A stretch of DNA of 40,985 bases from positions 1-40,985 of the forward strand of contig JAEOTE010000096.1 in the NCBI GenBank assembly GCA_016839945.1, read 5' to 3'. The notes beneath the pieces were generated by a model. That model did not search any database. It was not told the DNA's origin and saw only the letters and a list, made by a program, of their open reading frames with translations. This document shows positions 22,726-31,659 of the stretch, one piece after another. The position numbers were made by a program, and so were the translations under genes. The DNA comes from Candidatus Heimdallarchaeota archaeon (GTDB lineage Archaea; Asgardarchaeota; Heimdallarchaeia; Heimdallarchaeales; Heimdallarchaeaceae). Every line of letters begins with the position of its first letter. Within the stretch, counting starts at the first letter, position 1.

Positions 22726-23508
22726 TTATTTTGCTTCAACCATTTTATCCCTATCTACAACAAAAAACTTCAGTACAGAGAAAAGTGATGCCAATCCTAC
22801 CGTTCCAGCTATAACAATGAATGGCCATAACTGCCCTACATCAAGTAAAATGAAATACACAAGTAGCATGCTTGTACCAATTCCAATGAACATTGACCAT
22901 CCCCAATAAAACAAGGAATCTATCCATGAAATAGTTGGTTCTTTTAAGACAAAGTACGCAATTATCACCAATCCGCTCCAGATGCTTGTTCCTATTATTG
23001 GATATATTTGAAAATCTTCCCAACCGCCAGTTTCTATAAAAAGTCCAAATCCTAAAGCAAACATTGTTGTAAGAGTAGTAATGAATAAGATTACAGTCCA
23101 TACTAGAAGAAGATACAAAGGTTGTCGCTCTTTTTTCATCAAGGAGAAATGAACTCCTCCTGCCCATAAAATTAAATGAAAAGTACCCATTAAGGGCATA
23201 GCTTGAAAATCTTCCCAAGCTCCAAAATTAGCATATGCTAGAGCTAGCATACTGAAAGTAGTTGCTAAAAATAAGAAGAAAAACCAAATAATAACAATTA
23301 TACTAGATTTAATTTCTTTCTTTCTTGCTATAAACAAGAAAGCTGTCATTAGTATTATTAAGTAGACCATACCCAAAGTTGGACTACCAAACCATTCAAT
23401 ACCAGTTAGATCATCTTTCAATACGAATACGAATATGATTGCAATTATGCTTCCTATTATCCAGGTCCAAATAGTTATAGCGAGGAGAAATTTTTGTTTA
23501 ACCATCAT
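22726..23508 (-). CDS. polytopic membrane protein built from internal TM-hairpin repeats
   Basis: About 8 TM segments; WEDFQ twice; W-x4-F-x6-M three times. Confidence 0.75.
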   Translation of the reverse strand: MMVKQKFLLAITIWTWIIGSIIAIIFVFVLKDDLTGIEWFGSPTLGMVYLIILMTAFLFIARKKEIKSSIIVIIWFFFLFLATTFSMLALAYANFGAWEDFQAMPLMGTFHLILWAGGVHFSLMKKERQPLYLLLVWTVILFITTLTTMFALGFGLFIETGGWEDFQIYPIIGTSIWSGLVIIAYFVLKEPTISWIDSLFYWGWSMFIGIGTSMLLVYFILLDVGQLWPFIVIAGTVGLASLFSVLKFFVVDRDKMVEAK

Positions 23509-23602: not shown

Positions 23603-24088
23603 CTATTGATTGATATTATCTTCTAATTCCCTCATAAAAAAGAAACTAATAGTATTTTTATGAAAGAGAGTATACAAACCAACAATACCTAAAGCAAGTA
23701 CTAGGAACAAGTGAATAGGGATAGTAAATATTGAATACTTAATCATAACCTCAAACCCTCTATATATCATATAGATAGTTAAAATTGTTCCAGCGAGATA
23801 GATCCCAGATAGTGAAATCCATCCAATACGTTTTCTATTGATATAAATAATATTAACTGCTATACTAATTATAGCGATTACCAAAAAGACAATTCCTACA
23901 AATTTCAACAATGGTTCAAAATTGGCTAGATCATCAGGTTCAGGTTCAACAAATAGCTCAGTATTCCAAGTTAAAATAAGAAGAAAGATTCCCAAAGATA
24001 ATCCAACTACAGATAAGATATACGTTAAAACTGCAGTTATCTTTGCTCTTGAAGGGAAAGCATCTTCCTGTTTTGGAAAAAGTATCAT
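23603..24088 (-). CDS. 4-TM hypothetical membrane protein
   Basis: Four hydrophobic segments; RKRIGW loop. Confidence 0.7.
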   Translation of the reverse strand: MILFPKQEDAFPSRAKITAVLTYILSVVGLSLGIFLLILTWNTELFVEPEPDDLANFEPLLKFVGIVFLVIAIISIAVNIIYINRKRIGWISLSGIYLAGTILTIYMIYRGFEVMIKYSIFTIPIHLFLVLALGIVGLYTLFHKNTISFFFMRELEDNINQ

Positions 24089-24246: not shown

Positions 24247-24777
24247 GTGACAATCATTAGAAAACAGAGAATAATTAAAGACTATGAATCCTTAAGGAAG
24301 CTTCATAAAGAAGGAATTATTGGACAAGTGAAATCCTTTCCAAAGAAGAAGAAATCTATGGAACATCTGGCTATTGGTTTTAAGGCTCCTAAAGGAACAC
24401 CCTATGAAGGAGGAAAATATAAACTAGAAATCCTTTTTGGTCCAAATTATCCTTACAAACCTCCATTTGTAAGACTTCACACTTTTATTTGGCATCCAAA
24501 CTTTTGGAGCAATCCTAAAGAGTACCCAGGCAAAAGAAACATATGTTTAGCATTAGTTGATAATGAGATGGTAGGTAAACATGACGGTTGGTCTCCCGCT
24601 AAAAACATTACTACAGTTATTCATTCAATATTAGCAATGTTTAATGTTGAAGGAGCATATGTTAACCCTAAGGATGTTTTTAACAGAGAAGCTGCTTTAG
24701 AGTTCTTAAGAGATAAGAAAAAATTCCTAAGAAAAGCAAGAGCAGTAAGTAAAAAATACGCTACCTCTTACTGGTAA
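24247..24777 (+). CDS. ubiquitin-conjugating enzyme E2
   Basis: GTPYEGG, YPYKPP, WHPNF, active-site ICL, WSPA. GTG start. Confidence 0.95.
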   Translation: MTIIRKQRIIKDYESLRKLHKEGIIGQVKSFPKKKKSMEHLAIGFKAPKGTPYEGGKYKLEILFGPNYPYKPPFVRLHTFIWHPNFWSNPKEYPGKRNICLALVDNEMVGKHDGWSPAKNITTVIHSILAMFNVEGAYVNPKDVFNREAALEFLRDKKKFLRKARAVSKKYATSYW

Positions 24778-24797
24778 ATAAAGGTATAAAAGAAGCC

Positions 24798-25532
24798 ATG
24801 GGTATTGGTGTATTGACAATGGACAAAGAAGAAGATATTCCTGAACAGTACAAAGAACTTATGAGAAAAATAGAAGCTATCGAGAAAGCATTAGGACTCT
24901 CAGATATTGATAAAATAGTTGAGGATATCGAAAAAGAAAGAGAAATAGTTATCACTGAAGAAGATATTCAAATAACTCCTGAAACTGAAATAATCATTAA
25001 ACCTAAAGCATATCTCAAACTAGCAAAACATGCTTTATCATATGCAAATTCATTTATCCCAAAAAAAGATTGGATAGAAATTATAGGTTTATTAACAGGA
25101 CGAATAAAAAACGAAGAAACTCCTTTAGAACAAATTATTGTTGAGGATTATTGGCCTGTTGATCAAGGTGATGCTGTTAGTGTAGAAATTGTCGATCAAA
25201 AAATCTTTACAGAGATTTTCCATAAAAAAGATTCAAAACATTTCATAATTGGTTGGGCTCATTCCCATCCTAGTTATACTCCCTTTCTAAGTGATGATGA
25301 TTTTAGAACACATCTAAGATATCAAACATTTTGGAATAAATCCATAGCTGTTGTGATTGATCCTATACAAATATCCTTGGATGATTATGGATTAGGTGTT
25401 TTCAGAATAAAAGATGATAAGCGATCATATCATGAATTAACAAAAGAAGTTGAAGGAATGAGTACTGTAGCAAGTTATGAATCTATAGAGATGTTTATGA
25501 AAAATCAGTTTAAAGAAAAAAACAATCAATAA
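24798..25532 (+). CDS. JAMM/MPN+ metalloprotease (Rpn11/CSN5-like deconjugase)
   Basis: EIIGLL, GWAHSHPSYTPFLSDDD (HxH-x7-S-x2-D), AVVIDP. Acidic helical N-extension. Confidence 0.93.
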   Translation: MGIGVLTMDKEEDIPEQYKELMRKIEAIEKALGLSDIDKIVEDIEKEREIVITEEDIQITPETEIIIKPKAYLKLAKHALSYANSFIPKKDWIEIIGLLTGRIKNEETPLEQIIVEDYWPVDQGDAVSVEIVDQKIFTEIFHKKDSKHFIIGWAHSHPSYTPFLSDDDFRTHLRYQTFWNKSIAVVIDPIQISLDDYGLGVFRIKDDKRSYHELTKEVEGMSTVASYESIEMFMKNQFKEKNNQ

Positions 25533-25553
25533 CATAATAGGGTTGGTCAAGAA

Positions 25554-26657
25554 TTGGACTTGAATAACATCAAAGTATATGCATCTATAGCTATTGTAGG
25601 TACAATGGTTGGGGTATTATATCTAGCAATTCAAAAAGATTTACCTGTTGCATTAATTTTCTTTTATGTTACACTTTATGTTGTTGTCACACTACGTTAT
25701 GTTCTAGAAAGAAGACATTATAAAAAACATAAAGCAGCTTTAGCTAGTTCTCAATTCCTGTTATTACCTTTTAGCGTTATGCTAATGGGGAACTATATCT
25801 CTCCAGCTGCTGCTAATCCTAGAATTTTCTTAATAAATATTGATCTTGTTGGGGGGGATTCTCTACGAATTTTCTTTAATATCATTTCGCTATCTATGAT
25901 TATCCCATTAATAGTTCTCTCATTACATTTCAATAATTTCTATTCAGGAAGATGGCCTGCAATGGCTATTAATAGAAAAATAAAAAGAAAGAAAATAATT
26001 CCAATACTCTTTTTCACTTCCTTTGTTTTCATTTTACTAATTGGTTTCTTCATAAATTTGACAATTGATTTTGTTAGTTTAATTTTTGTACTTATCTACA
26101 TCGTTCTCTCAATAAACCATTTTATTGTTGCTCCAGCTAGAAGTGCAAGAGTAAGGGCAATTCAAAGAGCTCCAACAAGTACAACTAGAAGAACAGCATC
26201 TACAACTAGGCAACAAGTCCGCACAGTTCGTTCGAGTTCAACAAGAGCAAGGCGCACTACTTCAACTACAGCTTCTAGAACTACTAGAACCGCTCAACGT
26301 TCTACAGCACGTGTTGCTATTGATCCAGGGATAGATGTAAGGACTACAAGAAAAACCACTGCAAAAGCTGTATCTACCAAGATAACAGATAAAAATATAT
26401 TCCCTATTGGTAAGGTTTCAAGTTCTGAATTGAAATGTATAATCTGTTATATGGATTTTAATAAGAGAGATACAAGAAGAGTTGTTCTTTGTCCTCATTG
26501 CAGATATCCAGCTCATGAGGATGAATTCTTGAATTGGTTCAAGACTTCCAAACTTTGTGCAAGATGTAACAAACCTATCTCAACCAAATACATTAAGAAA
26601 CCTATATACAGACTAACTACAAAAATATATATTGAAAGAGTAATTGAAAAAGTATAA
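25554..26657 (+). CDS. multi-pass membrane protein with C-terminal RING-variant domain (putative E3 ligase)
   Basis: About 6 TM segments in aa 1-190, an R/T/S-rich linker, then CxxC-x14-CxxC-x4-H-x2-E-x3-W-x6-CxxC. Confidence 0.8.
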   Translation: MDLNNIKVYASIAIVGTMVGVLYLAIQKDLPVALIFFYVTLYVVVTLRYVLERRHYKKHKAALASSQFLLLPFSVMLMGNYISPAAANPRIFLINIDLVGGDSLRIFFNIISLSMIIPLIVLSLHFNNFYSGRWPAMAINRKIKRKKIIPILFFTSFVFILLIGFFINLTIDFVSLIFVLIYIVLSINHFIVAPARSARVRAIQRAPTSTTRRTASTTRQQVRTVRSSSTRARRTTSTTASRTTRTAQRSTARVAIDPGIDVRTTRKTTAKAVSTKITDKNIFPIGKVSSSELKCIICYMDFNKRDTRRVVLCPHCRYPAHEDEFLNWFKTSKLCARCNKPISTKYIKKPIYRLTTKIYIERVIEKV

Positions 26658-26739
26658 TAAATACAATGTCCATATGTATCAAAAGACATTTCACTAGAAA
26701 TCAAATATATATTCAGAAAACGACTACAAAGGTTGGATT

Positions 26740-27327
26740 ATGGGAACAATATCACACTTAACAGCTTCTTTCTTCATTTCATTATCTCTTGTTGGAGTAT
26801 CAATTTACTATTTTATTGAAGGAGATAACTTAATGGGGAAGGTGTTTGTGTTCATTGGCATTTTTGTTTTCATCTCATTTTTCTTTATTTTCAGAAGTAT
26901 ATACTACTTGAGACATAAAGCGACATTTAACGAATTCATCTACGTGTTTATTCTCCCTCTAATTCCAGTTTTGATACTTTTTGCCCAAGAAATGTTCAAT
27001 TTCAATGATATATTCTTAATTTCAACAGGAAATATTAAAACTAATGGAATAGATTATGATTTCTATATTACAATTATAGATTTTCTATTACTTCCTTATT
27101 ATTTAGCGAGTAACTATTTATTATTCAGATCGTTTATTCGTTATCCATTTATCAGATTCAAAAGTACAAGTGAAAAAGGTATGCCGCCAAAATTAGCAGG
27201 ATTAATTTTAATGTTAGCAATTCCAGCTCTATATATTGCTAGCTCCCTCACATATTTCCATAATTTCTTCTTGTTAATCTTTGGTATAGTCTATTTCTAT
27301 CTTGGCACAGTTGCTCTGTTTGTCTAA
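26740..27327 (+). CDS. ~6-TM membrane protein, apparent paralog of the E3 membrane domain
   Basis: Motifs colinear with the 25554 ORF: YxxHKA, LP, IFLI, II...P, R[WY]P, LIF..[IV]Y. Confidence 0.75.
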   Translation: MGTISHLTASFFISLSLVGVSIYYFIEGDNLMGKVFVFIGIFVFISFFFIFRSIYYLRHKATFNEFIYVFILPLIPVLILFAQEMFNFNDIFLISTGNIKTNGIDYDFYITIIDFLLLPYYLASNYLLFRSFIRYPFIRFKSTSEKGMPPKLAGLILMLAIPALYIASSLTYFHNFFLLIFGIVYFYLGTVALFV

Positions 27328-27343
27328 GAATAGTAATTTTTTT

Positions 27344-27991
27344 CTACTTTCGTGGTTTTTTCTGTTTAGGAATCTTTTGTTTTGGAATCTTCTGTTGAGG
27401 AATTTTTTGTTTAGGTATCTTTCTTTCTACTTCTTTTATTTGGGTAGTAACAGGTTCTTCTCTTTCTTTCTTCTCTTTCTCCCTTTCTTCTTTTGGAGCA
27501 GGTTTAGATTCTTTACTTTCAATTTCAGAGAACTTATCACTATCATTAACAGGAGGTGGAACTGATTTCTTTTCTTTTTTCTCTTTTTCTGGACTTATAA
27601 TATTTTCAACAGGTTTCTTTTCTTTTAGTTTTGTTTTTTGAGGTGGTCGAGTTTCCTTAGGTTTCTTCTGCTTTGTGTGTGTGTCTTTAGGAATGTAATT
27701 TATAGGCTTGGAGCTTGTGATTTTATCTTGTTTAGGTATCTTTGATTTAGGGATTTTTTGCTTAGGAATGGATTTACTTTTCTTTTCAGTTCTAAAACTT
27801 GTTAAATCGGATTTTGGCGGTTTTGAAGAATCTATTTTTTTCTTCTGTTTTTTTGGTGGAACTATATAATCCTCCCTGATTTTCTGTTTAGGGGGTCCAT
27901 CTGATGGAATTTTTGTTTTTGGTATTTTATCAGATGGTATTTTCTGTTTAGGAATCTTCGATTTTACTTTACTTTTTTTCTTCTTAGCCAT
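27344..27991 (-). CDS. lysine/proline-rich low-complexity protein with KIPxx pentapeptide repeats
   Basis: About 30% Lys by manual count. Ten KIP motifs in three blocks. ATG start MAKKKK. Repeat codons vary synonymously. Confidence 0.75.
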   Translation of the reverse strand: MAKKKKSKVKSKIPKQKIPSDKIPKTKIPSDGPPKQKIREDYIVPPKKQKKKIDSSKPPKSDLTSFRTEKKSKSIPKQKIPKSKIPKQDKITSSKPINYIPKDTHTKQKKPKETRPPQKTKLKEKKPVENIISPEKEKKEKKSVPPPVNDSDKFSEIESKESKPAPKEEREKEKKEREEPVTTQIKEVERKIPKQKIPQQKIPKQKIPKQKKPRK

Positions 27992-28232
27992 CTGTAATTC
28001 ACATCAATATGTTAAATTCCTATTATAATTTGTTTTTAATCAAATATATTATTTCTGATAGTTAAAGAATTACTCTTTTTAATTTAATCGCTTCTTTATT
28101 GAGTTATGCGTAAAAAAACCAAATTTAAAACATTAAAGTGGAATGTTTATCAAATAGGAAACTAAAGTAATTTTTAAAAGGCAATTTATATAAGTAAAAC
28201 TCGATATATTAATATCTAAAAGGTTGATAAAA

Positions 28233-28583
28233 ATGAGCGAAGAATTTGAAGAATTATCGTTTGATGAAGAAGAGGAAGAAGTAGTAGAAGAAACTGAAAT
28301 AGTTTCAAAGACTCCCTCAACAAAAACTCCCGCAGGAAAGAAAATAAGTGTATATTTCCAAAGTACAATTGGTCCAACTCCAAAACAAGAAAAACTTGTT
28401 GTTGCAACTGAAACACCTATCAGTGATCTCAAATATACTGTAAGTCAAATATTTGGACTTCCTCCAGAGGAATTTCATCTATCTCACGCAGGAAGAACAT
28501 GCGATCCTGATGACATTCTAGAAGATTATGGGGTTGAAGATGGAGATACAATGCTCCTAATACCAGTTTCAACTGCAGGATAA
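28233..28583 (+). CDS. ubiquitin-like protein with acidic N-terminal extension, ending ...STAG
   Basis: PISDLK..GLPPEEFHLSHAG..LEDYGVEDGDTMLLIPVSTAG aligns without gaps to ubiquitin residues 22-76. ATG at 28233. Confidence 0.9.
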   Translation: MSEEFEELSFDEEEEEVVEETEIVSKTPSTKTPAGKKISVYFQSTIGPTPKQEKLVVATETPISDLKYTVSQIFGLPPEEFHLSHAGRTCDPDDILEDYGVEDGDTMLLIPVSTAG

Positions 28584-28601
28584 ACTAATATTTTTTTAAT
28601 C

Positions 28602-28636
28602 AAAGAGACATAACAATAAGAAAGTCTCTTTTTTTA
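28602..28636 (+). terminator. hairpin plus T-tract after the Ubl gene
   Basis: AAAGAGAC (28602-28609) and GTCTCTTT (28624-28631) form an inverted repeat that runs into poly-T. Confidence 0.45.
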
Positions 28637-28738
28637 TATTATTTTTTTCATTTTTCAGAGAAACAAAATAAAAACTTATATGACTAGGAATTGCTTGTTT
28701 CAATATCAACTAATTAGTAAATATTGAAAGTGTAAACG

Positions 28739-29998
28739 ATGGAAAACAAATCTAGTGATAAATCAAATTTTTTTAGTGAAGTATTATCAGCTGACGAAAG
28801 GATAAGATTTGATAGACAATTACGATTACCAGGTTGGAATCAGAAAGCACTAAAGGATTCAACTGTACTAATTGTTGGTGTAGGTGGTTTAGGTACTGAG
28901 ATTGCTAAAAATCTAGCAATGGCTGGAGTTGGAGTGCTTCATCTTATTGATTTGGATATAATTGAGCATTCCAACCTCAATCGACAGATATTGTTCTATG
29001 ATGCTGAGGAAGGGGAGCCAAAATCCAAAGTAGCTGCTCGTACATTAAAGAAAATCAATCCTCATAGCAGATACTTTTGGCATTACTCTAATTTGGAGGA
29101 TGTGAATCCTGAAATCTATGCAAAAGCTGATTTATACATCTCTGGACTTGATTCAGTTACTGCAAGAAACGAATTAATGAGACGTGCTGTTCAATTTAAG
29201 AAGCCTATGATTGATGGAGGAACAGCTACGTATTATGGTCATGTTTATACTTATTTACCTAATGTAAATTCCTGTCTTCAATGTGATCCTCAGAGAGAAC
29301 GAGAGAGAGAAACTCTAGCAGCTTGCACTCTTGTAGGTATTCCAAGAAAAAGATCGCATTGTCTTCTAAAAGGTCAATTGTTCTTTGAATCAAAACATAA
29401 TAGACCTCCAGACACAACAGAAATGGATGAAGTTAAAATCGCGTTAGATTATGCAAATGATTTAATTAAAGAACATTTTCCAGAAACTGGATTATTTACA
29501 ATAGATGAAGCTGTAAAGATGATTGATCAACATGATCCAACTGTTATTTCAATAAATGCAGTTATTGCATCATTACAAACCCAAGAAGCTCTGAAATTGC
29601 TTCATCATCTCAAAGGAATAGAACTAGGTGTAGTAAACCCAGAATACCTTATCTACAATGGATTGGTTGGAAAATTCTTCTATTTAGAAAAACCACCAAA
29701 CAAGAAATGTTTACTATGTGGTGATAACGCACCAATAATAGAAGAAATAGAATTACCTAGAAGTTCTACTCTAGATATGTTGTATCCAATACTAAAACAA
29801 AGGGGATATCATTTTGATCCTGAGTTTTTACCAAGTTTCTGGCTTGTGGATAAAAAAGAGATGAGTGAAGCCAAAAGAAACAACACGCTTGTTGAAGCTG
29901 GTATTAGGGATTTTGAAACAATTTATGTAACAGGTCTTACAAAGAACAATGAGGAAAAAGATGTTTATGTAAGAATCCTCTTGAAGAATACAAAATAA
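28739..29998 (+). CDS. ubiquitin-activating enzyme E1 (ThiF family, UBA3/UBA2-like)
   Basis: RFDRQ, VGVGGLG, SNLNRQ, CLQC and CLLC zinc motifs, catalytic AACTLVGIPRKRSHC, C-terminal ubiquitin-fold-like TLVEAGIRDFETIYV. Confidence 0.93.
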   Translation: MENKSSDKSNFFSEVLSADERIRFDRQLRLPGWNQKALKDSTVLIVGVGGLGTEIAKNLAMAGVGVLHLIDLDIIEHSNLNRQILFYDAEEGEPKSKVAARTLKKINPHSRYFWHYSNLEDVNPEIYAKADLYISGLDSVTARNELMRRAVQFKKPMIDGGTATYYGHVYTYLPNVNSCLQCDPQRERERETLAACTLVGIPRKRSHCLLKGQLFFESKHNRPPDTTEMDEVKIALDYANDLIKEHFPETGLFTIDEAVKMIDQHDPTVISINAVIASLQTQEALKLLHHLKGIELGVVNPEYLIYNGLVGKFFYLEKPPNKKCLLCGDNAPIIEEIELPRSSTLDMLYPILKQRGYHFDPEFLPSFWLVDKKEMSEAKRNNTLVEAGIRDFETIYVTGLTKNNEEKDVYVRILLKNTK

Positions 29999-30079
29999 CT
30001 TGTGATTCTAATTAGTATAGAACATCAGATATCTCTATGTCAATAGACATATAAATTGTGTTTCTTAAGGAATCCCACT

Positions 30080-30472
30080 ATGAGTGAAAGAGACATTAAT
30101 TATTTTAAATTACTTGCTAAATACTATGGAATTAAAGAGAAGTTTTTTGATATCAAAGAAGACATTGATGAACTTGAAGGAAAGAAAGCTTATTACCAAA
30201 AACAACAAGCAAATGTAAATAGAGAATTACAAGGGATGCTTCTAAAAATAAACAAGCTAAGAAGTGATGGAAAAGCAGATAAGGCACTCAAGCAGGAAAT
30301 GAATCTTAAGAAAAAAGAAGTTAACGTAGCTAATTATAAGAAAAGTATTCAAGATATACAGAATAAAATTGAGAAAATAAAATTAGAATTTCAAAAAACC
30401 AGGACTGAGCTTGAAAAAACTGAATCACAACTAAAAATGGAATTTCCAGATAAATTCAATCAACATTTGTAA
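30080..30472 (+). CDS. coiled-coil helical-hairpin protein (possible PspA/ESCRT-III-like)
   Basis: Two long heptad-rich helices joined by LRSDGKADKA. ATG at 30080. Confidence 0.6.
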   Translation: MSERDINYFKLLAKYYGIKEKFFDIKEDIDELEGKKAYYQKQQANVNRELQGMLLKINKLRSDGKADKALKQEMNLKKKEVNVANYKKSIQDIQNKIEKIKLEFQKTRTELEKTESQLKMEFPDKFNQHL

Positions 30473-30559: not shown

Positions 30560-31129
30560 ATGATCCCCTTCTTCCCTAAAGATAAAGAAGTTCCAGAAGA
30601 ATTGATTTTTGATAATATAAAAATTAGACAACTTAGAGCAACTGATAATGAGCTTGACTATCAAGCAGTAATTGAGAGTGGTTTTAGACCTGAAGGTTTT
30701 CCAAAAGAAGAGAATCTTAAACAGATTTCAAGACATGAACAAGATCATAATGATAGTAAGGAATTTGCTTTTACTATAATGAATACTGATGAGACTATTT
30801 GTTATGGTTGTATTTTTATTAAACCTATTAATCCCTTTCTGAAATTTGCTTTCTTTAATGATAGAGTTGTTGAAAGTTTGAACATTGAAGAAAATGATCC
30901 TGGGATCTCTTTCTGGATAACTCCTAAAGGATGGAAACTCAATCTGTTTGAGAAAATTCTTAAGGAATTAAAAAACTGGTTTGAGATTGAATGGCCTTAT
31001 GATCGATTGTTTTTCCTTGGAATGAGACCAAATCAAGAAGAGATAAATGAGATTGAAAAAATAAGTCTGAAAAGAAATTTCTTATTACAAATAGAAAATG
31101 AGAATTATATCCTTTGGCAGATCTATTAG
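30560..31129 (+). CDS. GNAT-like N-acetyltransferase family protein
   Basis: IRQLRATDNELDYQAV, FAFTIMN..E..CYGCIFIKP, SFW, WF..EWPY. Confidence 0.65.
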   Translation: MIPFFPKDKEVPEELIFDNIKIRQLRATDNELDYQAVIESGFRPEGFPKEENLKQISRHEQDHNDSKEFAFTIMNTDETICYGCIFIKPINPFLKFAFFNDRVVESLNIEENDPGISFWITPKGWKLNLFEKILKELKNWFEIEWPYDRLFFLGMRPNQEEINEIEKISLKRNFLLQIENENYILWQIY

Positions 31130-31148: not shown

Positions 31149-31532
31149 TCACATTCCTGTTAACAAAACATAGTAAATATTGTAGATTATTCTTTGCAGT
31201 TTCCCATCCTTCTGAGTTTTTTCATAGACTTCTTTAAGGTTGACTTTTTTACCTGATTTATCTTTTAGGTAAAATTCTTCTCCTTCTCTTGAAAACTGTA
31301 GATTAAATTCTTCATTAAAGAATTGTTGAAGATAGCTCTCTTTTCCTTCCTCTAATACATCTTCAAATTCCATAAAAGAAATACCAAAGCCTACTTCTGG
31401 AGGGTGAACTCCTTGTTGAATAAGATTAAGCACAATATCCTTTTTCTTACAAATTGGACACCTAACGATATCAAATAAGGTACTATATTCTTCATCGAAT
31501 TCTATATTGCATTTCTTACAGAAGAACTTCAT
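31149..31532 (-). CDS. zinc-ribbon-containing hypothetical protein
   Basis: N-terminal CKKC...CPIC. Probable ATG at 31532. Confidence 0.7.
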   Translation of the reverse strand: MKFFCKKCNIEFDEEYSTLFDIVRCPICKKKDIVLNLIQQGVHPPEVGFGISFMEFEDVLEEGKESYLQQFFNEEFNLQFSREGEEFYLKDKSGKKVNLKEVYEKTQKDGKLQRIIYNIYYVLLTGM

Positions 31533-31659
31533 CCAATAATAATACAAATACTAATTTAAAAAATTATACAAATTATATAAGATTCATCTGTTTTTAGTAA
31601 ATCTTCAACAAAACTGCATCTAGAAAACTTAATATCATTGTTTTCTTTAAATAATTAAG

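Follow-up and report, generated by a model that had tools for sequence, protein, structure and literature searches.

An Asgard archaeal ubiquitin-like conjugation locus whose candidate ligase is a six-helix membrane RING protein

The window, a 40,985-nucleotide stretch of DNA from a Heimdall-group archaeon, carries what its sequence indicates is a complete ubiquitin-like (Ubl) conjugation gene set, in which a six-helix membrane protein (TM-RING) is the sole candidate for the ligase. We consider it likely that this is a second, self-contained Ubl conjugation system, conserved across Asgard archaea, with its ligase in the cell membrane. Given the Asgard-wide conservation of the core set, membrane-bound ubiquitin-type tagging is probably older than eukaryotes, with no sign of an ERAD-like working. 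All eight open reading frames of the first-pass annotation were found again at the same coordinates, and its layout was reproduced: E2, JAMM, TM-RING and a membrane paralog (TM195) spaced by gaps of 20, 21 and 82 bp, a convergent K-rich gene on the minus strand, then Ubl, E1 and a coiled-coil gene on the plus strand. Of the "eight-gene set" claimed there, the five-gene core (Ubl, E1, E2, JAMM, TM-RING) stood, whereas TM195, the K/P-rich gene and the coiled-coil gene have a narrower distribution; Ubl-E1-E2-JAMM-TM-RING alone is the core, and TM195 and the K/P-rich gene are extras found in the window's class.

The claims of a complete conjugation set and of intact catalytic signatures were upheld by the Pfam families and by the catalytic residues of E1, E2 and JAMM, which are invariant in family alignments. 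The E2 (UBC fold; 24247..24777, plus strand; Pfam UQ_con 5e-25) keeps the HPN motif and Cys100, with H83, P84, N85 and C100 invariant in a 23-sequence alignment (mean identity 86%), and its best PDB matches are eukaryotic E2s (2.6e-15). Alignment to these enzymes revealed two 7-residue insertions, one on either side of the active site; both loops that canonically bind E3s, Y-P-Y-K-P-P and W-S-P-A, are retained. The JAMM/MPN+ metalloprotease (24798..25532, plus strand; Pfam JAB 3.3e-12) is Rpn11-like with a helical N-terminal extension; E94, H155, H157, S165 and D168 are invariant in 29/29 sequences, and the closest solved structure is the Caldiarchaeum Rpn11-like protein 6fju (1.5e-12). The single-chain E1 (28739..29998, plus strand; Pfam ThiF 5.5e-52) comprises adenylation and catalytic-Cys domains, a tetra-Cys zinc site and a C-terminal ubiquitin-fold domain, with C196 and the zinc residues C179, C182, C324 and C327 invariant in the family alignment. 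It matches UBA3 by phmmer (3.6e-32), C196 aligning with the UBA3 catalytic Cys, and its AF2 model (pLDDT 83) matches UBA3 by Foldseek over its full length (7.3e-26, 419 columns).

The Ubl (28233..28583, plus strand) exceeds the Pfam ubiquitin cut-off (1.7e-6, 28.1 bits); ortholog comparison places its start at the ATG at 28233 rather than at 28224. Its acidic aromatic N-tail, with the SKTP..KTP motif, leads into a beta-grasp domain; the C-terminus is S-T-A-G directly before the stop codon, and every ortholog terminates in STAG plus 0–3 residues. The family profile matches ubiquitin and the Caldiarchaeum Ubl (8e-7), and UFM1 is missing among its top 60 matches. One distant locus (L045) encodes a tandem di-Ubl whose units are joined directly at ...AG|V. 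Given this tandem form and the 1–3-residue extensions in relatives, Ubl precursors would need processing, for which, as for deconjugation, JAMM is the candidate enzyme. The SKTP motif of the N-tail is phylum-wide and related to the K-[T/I]-P repeats of the K-rich protein; the tandem precursor, the tail motif and these repeats are new here.

The candidate E3, TM-RING (367 aa; 25554..26657, plus strand), was characterised by AF2, hydropathy and a family alignment (A1). AF2 places helices at residues 6–27, 30–59, 66–82, 110–130, 148–168 and 173–205, and hydropathy concurs, in agreement with the earlier statement that the locus has a single RING and that this is joined to a ~6-TM domain (mean pLDDT 74; membrane domain 73–93, finger 75–88). 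The membrane helices (~6–205) lead into a disordered, Arg/Ser/Thr-rich, Lys-poor linker (~206–285) and a C-terminal RING-fold finger. The zinc-finger core (26436..26567, plus strand), C295-x2-C298...C313-x2-C316-x4-H321-x2-E324-x3-W328-x6-C335-x-R337-C338, is invariant in 31 sequences, among which H315 is unconserved; the ligand pattern is C4-H-E-C2, with Glu (E324) as sixth ligand. Glu is an unusual zinc ligand. The motif is present in 59/70 representative relatives, with Glu at ligand 6 in 58/59, and a soluble paralog on another contig (C82) has His at this position.

We weighed the reading in which the finger is non-catalytic, the membrane protein being an anchor, a receptor or the main substrate while the E2 conjugates without an E3. 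The Pfam RING match falls short of its threshold (zf-RING_2, E 0.002, 18.7 bits versus a 27.3 cut-off), ligand 6 is Glu, no Arg follows the last Cys as the canonical linchpin (a (near-)invariant Arg stands one residue before that Cys), and the E2-RING co-fold described below lends little weight, all of which would suit such a finger. Against these points, RING and U-box domains are the top Foldseek matches (probability 0.9–1.0, but E > 0.1), the finger retains the E2-contacting Trp and the hydrophobic residue two positions past the first Cys, and its residues are under strong constraint. Furthermore, a profile search of 1.84 billion representatives found only 70 proteins with this membrane domain, and the RING is fused in all full-length ones. 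The linker holds 2.9% Lys and 19.4% Arg (7.1% and 5.3% elsewhere in the protein), and 41/106 linkers are Lys-free; this composition suggests that the tether puts the finger beside an active, Lys-directed transfer site. A non-catalytic finger therefore appears improbable to us.

Modelling of the E2-RING complex, proposed as a check in the first-pass annotation, gave a co-fold score of 0.60 against 0.22 for the best control, with partner pLDDT of at least 80 and run agreement of at least 97% of contacts. The mark passed here was reached by 58/80 solved complexes and 2/110 mismatched pairs, and scores of 0.60 or below included only 7/80 solved complexes together with both passing mismatches; the pass may also reflect memory, because E2-RING is a textbook pair, and we count it as weak support. 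In the six-helix N-in/C-in model, the RING, the Arg-rich linker and both basic loops lie on one side, which the positive-inside rule would make cytosolic.

We propose that JAMM would trim the precursors (tandem Ubls, and relatives' forms with 1–3 extra residues), baring the C-terminal Ala-Gly; the UBA3-like E1 would adenylate the Ubl and carry it as a thioester on C196, its ubiquitin-fold domain recruiting the E2; and Cys100 of the E2 would deliver the Ubl to the RING-fold finger. With the finger held on the cytoplasmic side by its Arg-rich, Lys-poor tether, the lysines tagged would therefore be those of proteins at the membrane or close to it, and JAMM would also undo the tagging. In the window's class, the RING-less TM195 probably pairs with the ligase, and the K/P-rich protein is likely a dedicated substrate, adaptor or decoy.

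An alternative target is the membrane itself: the ligase would put the Ala-Gly Ubl on an amino-lipid head group, marking membranes rather than proteins, for which Atg8 lipidation and Tul1-dependent ubiquitin-PE are precedents. The ligase is membrane-embedded, the single terminal Gly of the Ubl is protease-exposed as in Atg8, and the acidic F-x-x-L-type N-tail could serve for docking. We nevertheless judge this very improbable, as the E1 is canonical UBA3-type rather than Atg7-like, the E2 canonical UBC-type rather than Atg3-like, and lysine chemistry is indicated both by a tether poor in Lys and by a partner protein rich in it.

The first-pass annotation had likened the system to the ERAD, Asi and Pex ligases, an analogy that reaches no further than architecture. 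In Hrd1, Doa10/MARCH6, Pex2/10/12, Asi1/3 and Tul1, a cytosolic RING is likewise joined to a membrane domain of several passes, and the heteromeric Pex and Asi ligases offer a parallel for a membrane partner that is RING-less or paralogous. The window's finger shares the spacing H-x2-[ligand 6]-x3-W-x6-C-x2-C, which is the consensus of RING-H2 fingers such as that of Hrd1, and Foldseek matches to TM-RING include the zinc finger of Hrd1 (6a3z); in contrast, ligands 3–5 are C-x2-C-x4-H rather than C-x-H-x2-H, and ligand 6 is Glu. An ERAD-like quality control, in which misfolded or orphan membrane proteins would be tagged for Cdc48 extraction and the proteasome as with Hrd1/Doa10, would also fit the E2 insertion after the catalytic Cys, where the ERAD E2 Ubc7/UBE2G2 has a loop, and the presence of Cdc48 in the genome. 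However, Cdc48 is encoded on another contig, the locus has no linked derlin, Hrd3 or Cdc48 adaptor genes, and none of ~45 loci inspected contains proteasome, Cdc48 or chaperone genes. A DER1/derlin search found no match in the genome, although the control genomes likewise gave none. The membrane domain has no detectable homology to those of eukaryotic membrane RING ligases and no significant Foldseek match (E > 0.1) or sequence similarity to any solved protein; a VIA search returned generic helical bundles (best Z 8.3), and the HRD1-complex chain (Z 7.5) lies inside this helical-bundle noise. The Ubl lacks a Gly-Gly end, and a dedicated Lys-rich partner is more to be expected of tagging for regulation or scaffolding than of broad quality control. 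We thus regard ERAD-like quality control as unlikely, and favour membrane-proximal Ubl tagging by a self-contained system.

The first-pass reading was staked in part on relatives keeping TM-RING and its paralog together with E1, E2 and Ubl. On this point it survives, because this synteny is kept in ~20 genus-mates, a sister family and other families of the class, as well as in the distant loci L044 and L045. The membrane-domain profile matches 177/400 genomes of the phylum, mostly with one copy per genome, and Ubl-E1-E2-JAMM-TM-RING are co-directional in 14/16 further distant loci from other families. In the window's genus, an ancestral single operon would have broken into E2-JAMM-TM-RING-TM195, the inverted K-rich gene and Ubl-E1. 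The gene content (Ubl, E1, E2, JAB) is shared with antiviral systems like Bil or CBASS-Cap2/Cap3 of bacteria, and PADLOC E1-E2 models match the E1 (best 1.1e-16) and its JAB models match JAMM weakly. These matches, however, span generic adenylation and JAB cores only, and PADLOC models gave no match for E2, RING or Ubl; the enzymes are eukaryote-type, separate and unfused, and about one operon per genome is inherited phylum-wide with high conservation among housekeeping genes, not in defence islands. A defence role is accordingly scarcely credible.

By sequence, the locus is a second ubiquitin-like system of its genome, distinguished by a Ubl ending in Ala-Gly. Contig C129 encodes a Gly-Gly ubiquitin (ending GGF) with its own E1 inside an ESCRT cluster (Ub, E1, a UEV-Vps23-Vps28 fusion, Vps22/36, Vps25, Vps4 and Snf7), and soluble RING proteins are encoded elsewhere in the genome. 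Such Asgard ubiquitin-ESCRT clusters (Hatano 2022, PMC9192718) have phylum and enzyme families in common with the window's locus, but that on C129 is separate, with its own Ubl and an E1 of 334 aa versus 419 aa, and the window's locus has no ESCRT gene. Similarly, the reconstituted operon of Ca. Caldiarchaeum subterraneum encodes Rpn11, Ub, E2-like, E1-like and small RING finger proteins (PMC5654768), and its Rpn11 has been studied (PMC6043591). Both systems comprise a Ubl, an E1 with catalytic Cys, a UBC-type E2, a RING-type finger and an Rpn11-like JAMM, and imply pro-Ubl processing. Whereas the Caldiarchaeum E3 is small and soluble and its Ubl ends in Gly-Gly, the window's E3 is a ~370-aa six-helix membrane protein with a C4-H-E-C2 finger of PHD/RINGv-like spacing, its Ubl ends in Ala-Gly and has a conserved acidic and SKTP N-tail, its E2 has the two active-site insertions, and its class has the extra membrane paralog and K/P-rich protein. 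The RING E3 characterised in the Asgard literature, including the Helarchaeial E1/E2/RING cascade (bioRxiv 10.1101/2023.07.25.550441), is soluble, and our literature search found no paper describing this membrane E3.

TM195 (26740..27327, plus strand) had been called a membrane paralog, and profile-profile comparison confirmed that it is truly paralogous to the membrane domain of TM-RING while lacking the RING (hhalign, A3 versus A2: 96% probability, E 3.6e-9, 168 co-linear columns), a kinship undetected by BLASTP (E 2.7). It was found in 54 of the 400 genomes of the phylum, all from families f1, f3, f5 and f6 of the window's class, which are the TM-RING-bearing families of that class, and in no other class. 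TM195 is a candidate heteromeric partner of TM-RING.

The K/P-rich protein (27344..27991, minus strand; ~30% Lys, probably disordered), seen in the window's class alone, carries K-[T/I]-P-K-Q-K repeats, with 10 K[TI]P motifs versus 1.2 expected and 0/2000 shuffles as high. Its gene position and ordered motif blocks are kept throughout the genus, and L044 and L045 have co-directional counterparts of 257 and 277 aa after TM195. Candidate roles for it are those of a multivalent substrate, adaptor or decoy; motif enrichment and co-occurrence raise the idea that K-[T/I]-P might be an acceptor motif. SUMO2/3 form chains through their tails, and SUMO is attached at psi-K-x-E consensus sites. The window's Ubl resembles SUMO in a flexible N-tail whose conserved Lys motif is repeated many times in a co-encoded protein, so that SKTP may permit chain building in SUMO2/3-tail style; it differs in its motif, S-K-T-P or K-I-P rather than psi-K-x-E, and in its single-chain E1. 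The membership of the coiled-coil gene (30056..30472, plus strand; weak coiled-coil-type Pfam and NCBIfam matches only) in the Ubl system is uncertain: neighbourhood comparison found no linkage beyond the genus, and among genus-mates it shifts between positions upstream of E2 and downstream of E1.

The window, contig C69 of a 3.0 Mb, 88% complete genome of Heimdallarchaeaceae type, carries an eight-gene locus whose map in the first-pass annotation was reproduced exactly by our ORF list. On the plus strand lie an E2 (24247–24777; Pfam UQ_con, 5e-25), a JAMM metalloprotease (24798–25532; Pfam JAB, 3.3e-12), TM-RING, a membrane protein of 367 aa with its finger at the C-terminus (25554–26657; best RING model zf-RING_2, sub-threshold), and TM195, a 195-aa membrane protein (26740–27327). 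A convergent Lys-rich ORF of 215 aa follows on the minus strand (27344–27991), next to a shared 240-bp region that is a putative divergent promoter, and then, again on the plus strand, the ubiquitin-like modifier Ubl (28224–28583, with the true start at ATG 28233 according to orthologs; Pfam ubiquitin, 1.7e-6), an E1 (28739–29998; Pfam ThiF, 5.5e-52) and a coiled-coil ORF of 138 aa (30056–30472). The earlier observation is confirmed; its interpretation, a dedicated system for membrane-protein ubiquitylation or quality control akin to ERAD, is partly supported.

We then characterized TM-RING, the candidate E3. Hydropathy and the AF2 model (mean pLDDT 74) concordantly placed six helices within residues 6–205, with a beta-hairpin between helices 3 and 4, followed by a disordered linker (208–276) and a folded C-terminal domain. 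Both strongly basic loops lie on the same side of the membrane as the Arg-rich linker, and by the positive-inside rule the natural reading is an N-in/C-in topology, with the finger in the cytosol. In a 31-sequence alignment, C295, C298, C313, C316, H321, E324, W328, C335, R337 and C338 of the finger were invariant and H315 was variable, giving the pattern C-x2-C ... C-x2-C-x4-H-x2-E-x3-W-x6-C-x2-C, with seven invariant Cys/His positions as predicted ligands and an invariant Glu at position 6. Canonical RING fingers are cross-braced by eight Cys/His zinc ligands; the second half of this finger has the same spacing as RING-H2, but Glu replaces the Cys of ligand 6. Pfam RING models stayed below threshold (best zf-RING_2, E 0.002, 18.7 bits), and the best Foldseek matches of the model were almost all RING/U-box domains (probability 0.9–1.0), with E values above 0.1 because the domain is small. 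A RING E3 binds its E2 and promotes release of Ubl from the E2~Ubl thioester, and residues expected to contact an E2 (a hydrophobic residue at C1+2 and the Trp) were conserved. Co-folding the E2 with finger residues 283–367 and two zinc ions scored 0.60 versus 0.22 for the best control, which weakly supports the pairing; because E2–RING pairs have been solved many times, the score may echo those structures and indicates likeness rather than binding. Across 106 family members, the linker contains 2.9% Lys and 19.4% Arg, versus 7.1% and 5.3% elsewhere, and 41 of these linkers have no Lys at all; in a genome of 30% GC, this composition points to selection against lysines beside a putative active transfer site.

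A soluble protein of 194 aa in the same genome (contig C82; L041:1775–2359) combines a zinc ribbon at the N-terminus with a RING at the C-terminus. It shows the ligand spacing of TM-RING, but ligand 6 is His, the ending is C-P-x-C-R and the canonical linchpin Arg is present; orthologs of 190–200 aa occur in nearly all genus-mates.

The enzymes around TM-RING have the features of eukaryote-type archaeal E1-E2-RING operons, the kind known from Caldiarchaeum and Asgard archaea, and the intact catalytic signatures described earlier for E1, E2 and JAMM held up, the residues being invariant in family alignments. The E1 matched UBA3, the catalytic subunit of the NEDD8 E1, at 3.6e-32 (phmmer), with C196 at the position of the UBA3 catalytic Cys; this residue and four zinc cysteines were invariant (n = 26 sequences). 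Its AF2 model (pLDDT 83) matched UBA3 in Foldseek at 7.3e-26 over 419 columns, the full length, and the match takes in the C-terminal ubiquitin-fold domain, so that the adenylation, catalytic Cys and C-terminal ubiquitin-fold domains of the operon-type E1 are all present. The E2 (mean identity 86%, 23 sequences) has the UBC fold with invariant H83, P84, N85 and C100 (the HPN motif and catalytic Cys), and retains both canonical E3-binding loops; alignment with a solved E2 revealed two 7-residue insertions around the active site. For JAMM, the nearest solved structure was the Caldiarchaeum Rpn11-like enzyme CsRpn11 (1.5e-12), and E94, H155, H157, S165 and D168, which make up the E...HxH...S..D signature of the MPN+ type, were invariant in 29 sequences. 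A sulfur-carrier (MoeB/ThiS) reading of the locus was rejected, since its E1 combines a Cys domain of eukaryotic type with a ubiquitin-fold domain and is linked to E2, RING and JAMM genes; furthermore, a separate MoeB-like gene lies on contig C62. The JAMM N-terminus (window 24798–24990) and its orthologs carry a conserved amphipathic Lys/Glu-rich helix of 50–100 residues, beyond the coverage of solved Rpn11-like enzymes, which could be a docking element.

The Ubl exceeded the Pfam ubiquitin cut-off (28.1 bits), and all orthologs have S-T-A-G at the end, followed by the stop codon or by 1–3 extra residues. This is a beta-grasp modifier with an activatable C-terminal glycine, as in archaeal E1-E2-RING operons, although its penultimate residue is Ala, not Gly. 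Across the phylum, the N-terminal tail is made up of an acidic segment containing Phe and Leu and, after it, an S-K-T-P motif, often doubled. We considered UFM1 identity because of the single-Gly end and because a recent study (PMC12962969) lists, for nine Asgard clades, 'Ufm1 homologues' that may or may not be of this Ubl family, with mention of disordered termini and multi-hit proteins. The sequence gives no support for this identity: the family profile matched ubiquitin, the Caldiarchaeum Ubl, ISG15 and ubiquilin-type domains, no UFM1 appeared among the top 60 matches, and Pfam Ufm1 matched neither the Ubl nor anything else in the genome. A UFM1 system comprises a UFM1-family modifier, a UBA5-type E1 and a UFC1-type E2; here, the E1 is UBA3-like and the E2 carries HPN.

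How a ubiquitin-type precursor of this kind may be processed is indicated by a distant locus, L045, from another family of the window's class (Logan DRR620298 contig). Its tandem di-Ubl ORF (2–577, cut at the contig start) contains two full units, each ending in S-V-A-G, head to tail without a spacer, like a polyubiquitin precursor. An endoprotease is needed to separate units fused head to tail directly after Ala-Gly; for this step the linked JAMM stands out as candidate, as in Caldiarchaeum (PMC5654768, PMC6043591). Loci of other Asgard classes encode larger proteins with Ubl-related ends close to the operon. One frame, of 585 aa, pairs a P-loop ATPase-like N-part with a Ubl-family C-terminal domain and an S-R-A-G end (L059:14575–16329, minus strand); another, of ~300 aa, has a Cys-pair N-part, a Ubl-family domain and an S-T-A-G-F-F end (L055:11752–12657, plus strand); and a third, of 270 aa, has membrane helices in its N-terminal part and a Ubl-like end that lacks Ala-Gly (L050:13623–14432, plus strand).

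We investigated the distribution of the locus at three levels. Within the genus, about 20 loci read E2-JAMM-TMRING-TM195, followed by the K-rich gene in inverted orientation and by Ubl-E1, and a sister family has Ubl-Ubl-E1-E2-JAMM-TMRING with TM195 nearby. Beyond these, a membrane-domain profile searched against 1.84 billion proteins retrieved 70 representatives only; full-length proteins with this domain were 340–465 aa, all with the finger, and 58 of 59 had Glu at ligand 6. In whole genomes, the profile matched 177 of 400 from the phylum, usually once per genome, including 113 of the 135 genomes of one family of another class. Among 16 further loci from seven families, some of them in closed genomes, 14 had Ubl-E1-E2-JAMM-TMRING as one co-directional operon; of the other two, one was cut by a contig end and one had a shortened E1 frame and no Ubl match. 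The window's gene order is a rearranged derivative of this single operon. TM195 was found in four families of the window's class only, which are the families of that class with TM-RING, and in none of the 135 genomes of the large other-class family; other-class loci have unrelated genes downstream of TM-RING. These data resolve the locus into three layers: a phylum-wide five-gene core, class-level TM195 and K/P-rich protein, and a genus-level mobile coiled-coil neighbour. The eight genes do not form one unit: across the phylum only the core does so, TM195 and the K/P-rich protein join it at class level, and the coiled-coil gene only within the genus. Small GTPase genes occur beside the operon at two distant loci: an Arf-family member (Pfam) adjoins it at L045:7162–7803 (minus strand), and an ORF with a G-x4-G-K-T P-loop directly follows TM-RING at L060:10117–10704 (plus strand).

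TM195 had been described as a paralog of the TM-RING membrane domain. BLASTP gave no match between the two (E 2.7), and at 1e-3 the TM-domain HMMER profile failed to recover TM195 from the 1.84 billion proteins; profile–profile comparison of the family alignments gave 96% probability (E 3.6e-9) over 168 co-linear columns, nearly both full lengths, with a common motif at the cytosolic start of helix 3, and supports the paralogy. For neither TM195 nor the coiled-coil protein were language-model look-alikes informative.

Genus-wide, the Lys-rich protein is conserved and its motif blocks keep their order. It contains 4–10 K-[T/I]-P motifs versus ~1 expected, and in nearly every ortholog the observed count was reached by none of 2000 shuffles. 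At L045 and at L044, another distant locus of the window's class, KTP motifs also occur in a K/P-rich protein (257 or 277 aa) encoded after TM195 and co-directionally with it, which indicates that the protein truly belongs to the system at class level. The idea that SKTP/K-[T/I]-P would serve in consensus-site tagging and chain building rests on the motif common to the Lys-rich protein and the Ubl tail. In its full form, the membrane RING ligase would read S-K-T-P/K-I-P, the SKTP tail would build chains, much as SUMO2/3 chains are built through a tail (the proposed counterpart being the Ubl's own SKTP tail), and in the window's class a heteromer of TM-RING and its RING-less paralog would decorate the Lys-rich scaffold at the membrane; we regard this full scheme as rather unlikely. 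If true, it would make the system a prokaryotic precursor of the membrane ubiquitin ligases of eukaryotes, one that follows its own consensus-site logic.

For the comparison with ERAD ligases (Hrd1, Doa10/MARCH6), the likeness lies in the architecture. The membrane domain (residues 1–205) had no significant Foldseek match, and in a VIA search of 48,161 chains the best matches (Z 8.3) were unrelated helical bundles, with an HRD1-complex chain (Z 7.5) within noise. Foldseek against the PDB, the VIA wide search and the ESM Atlas produced no convincing relative of the domain, the ESM Atlas matches being mostly Asgard proteins of TM-RING's own kind. ERAD ligases act together with derlin and Cdc48 in retrotranslocation and degradation; DER1 had no match in the 88%-complete genome, and control genomes likewise gave none; Cdc48 is encoded on another contig, and no proteolysis, derlin or Cdc48 gene was present in any locus examined. 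Nothing beyond architecture supports an ERAD-like function of the locus. A defence-system reading was set aside, as PADLOC defence models gave only generic E1 and JAB enzyme-core matches.

The genome contains a further, canonical ubiquitin cluster (L040, C129:1–6731), with a ubiquitin of Gly-Gly-Phe end that is truncated where the contig starts, an E1 of 334 aa, a 465-aa UEV/Vps23-core/Vps28 fusion, an unassigned 104-aa ORF, Vps22/36 (EAP30), Vps25 (ESCRT-II), Vps4 and a Snf7-family ESCRT-III protein. Clusters of this ubiquitin–ESCRT type were described by Hatano et al. (PMC9192718). Elsewhere, the genome encodes an E2 on its own and several soluble RING proteins. With Gly-Gly ubiquitin, E1 and ESCRT genes clustered separately, the window's locus is, judging by gene content, a second system, a putative parallel pathway with its own tag.

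In eukaryotes, ERAD, import into peroxisomes and endosomal sorting all rely on RING ligases embedded in membranes, and where these ligases came from is, to our knowledge, not established. Among archaea, the nearest kin of eukaryotes have a complete, strongly conserved Ubl cascade in which the candidate E3 is always a multi-pass membrane protein, and which is kept separate from the Gly-Gly ubiquitin and ESCRT genes that this genome also holds. This makes a pre-eukaryotic origin of ubiquitin-type membrane tagging directly testable: all cascade parts are small and the soluble ones are expressible, and since closed genomes from other Asgard classes contain the operon, it may be present in cultured strains. 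The Ala-Gly end of the tag means that di-Gly remnant searches of Asgard proteomes would miss it. A membrane-embedded RING in Asgard ubiquitin operons is not described in PMC5654768 and its supplement, PMC9192718, PMC11354881, bioRxiv 10.1101/2023.07.25.550441, PMC12962969, PMC13734099 or PMC4571567; an earlier mention in the subscription literature is possible. As a putative membrane-E3 variant of archaeal E1-E2-RING systems, the locus would matter greatly for the question of how membrane-associated ubiquitylation arose.

Several ORFs flank the locus. Upstream of E2, two divergent multi-pass membrane proteins without a Pfam match (260 aa, 22726–23508; 161 aa, 23603–24088; both minus strand) keep their synteny in the nearest relative, L013; the 260-aa protein, which has three G-x-W-E-D-F-Q..P repeats between helix pairs, recurs less than ~10 kb away in several genus-mates. 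Downstream, a 189-aa ORF (30560–31129, plus strand) and a 132-aa Cys-pair, zinc-ribbon-like ORF (31149–31547, minus strand), both without a Pfam match, adjoin either end of the Ubl locus in many genus-mates, in varying order.
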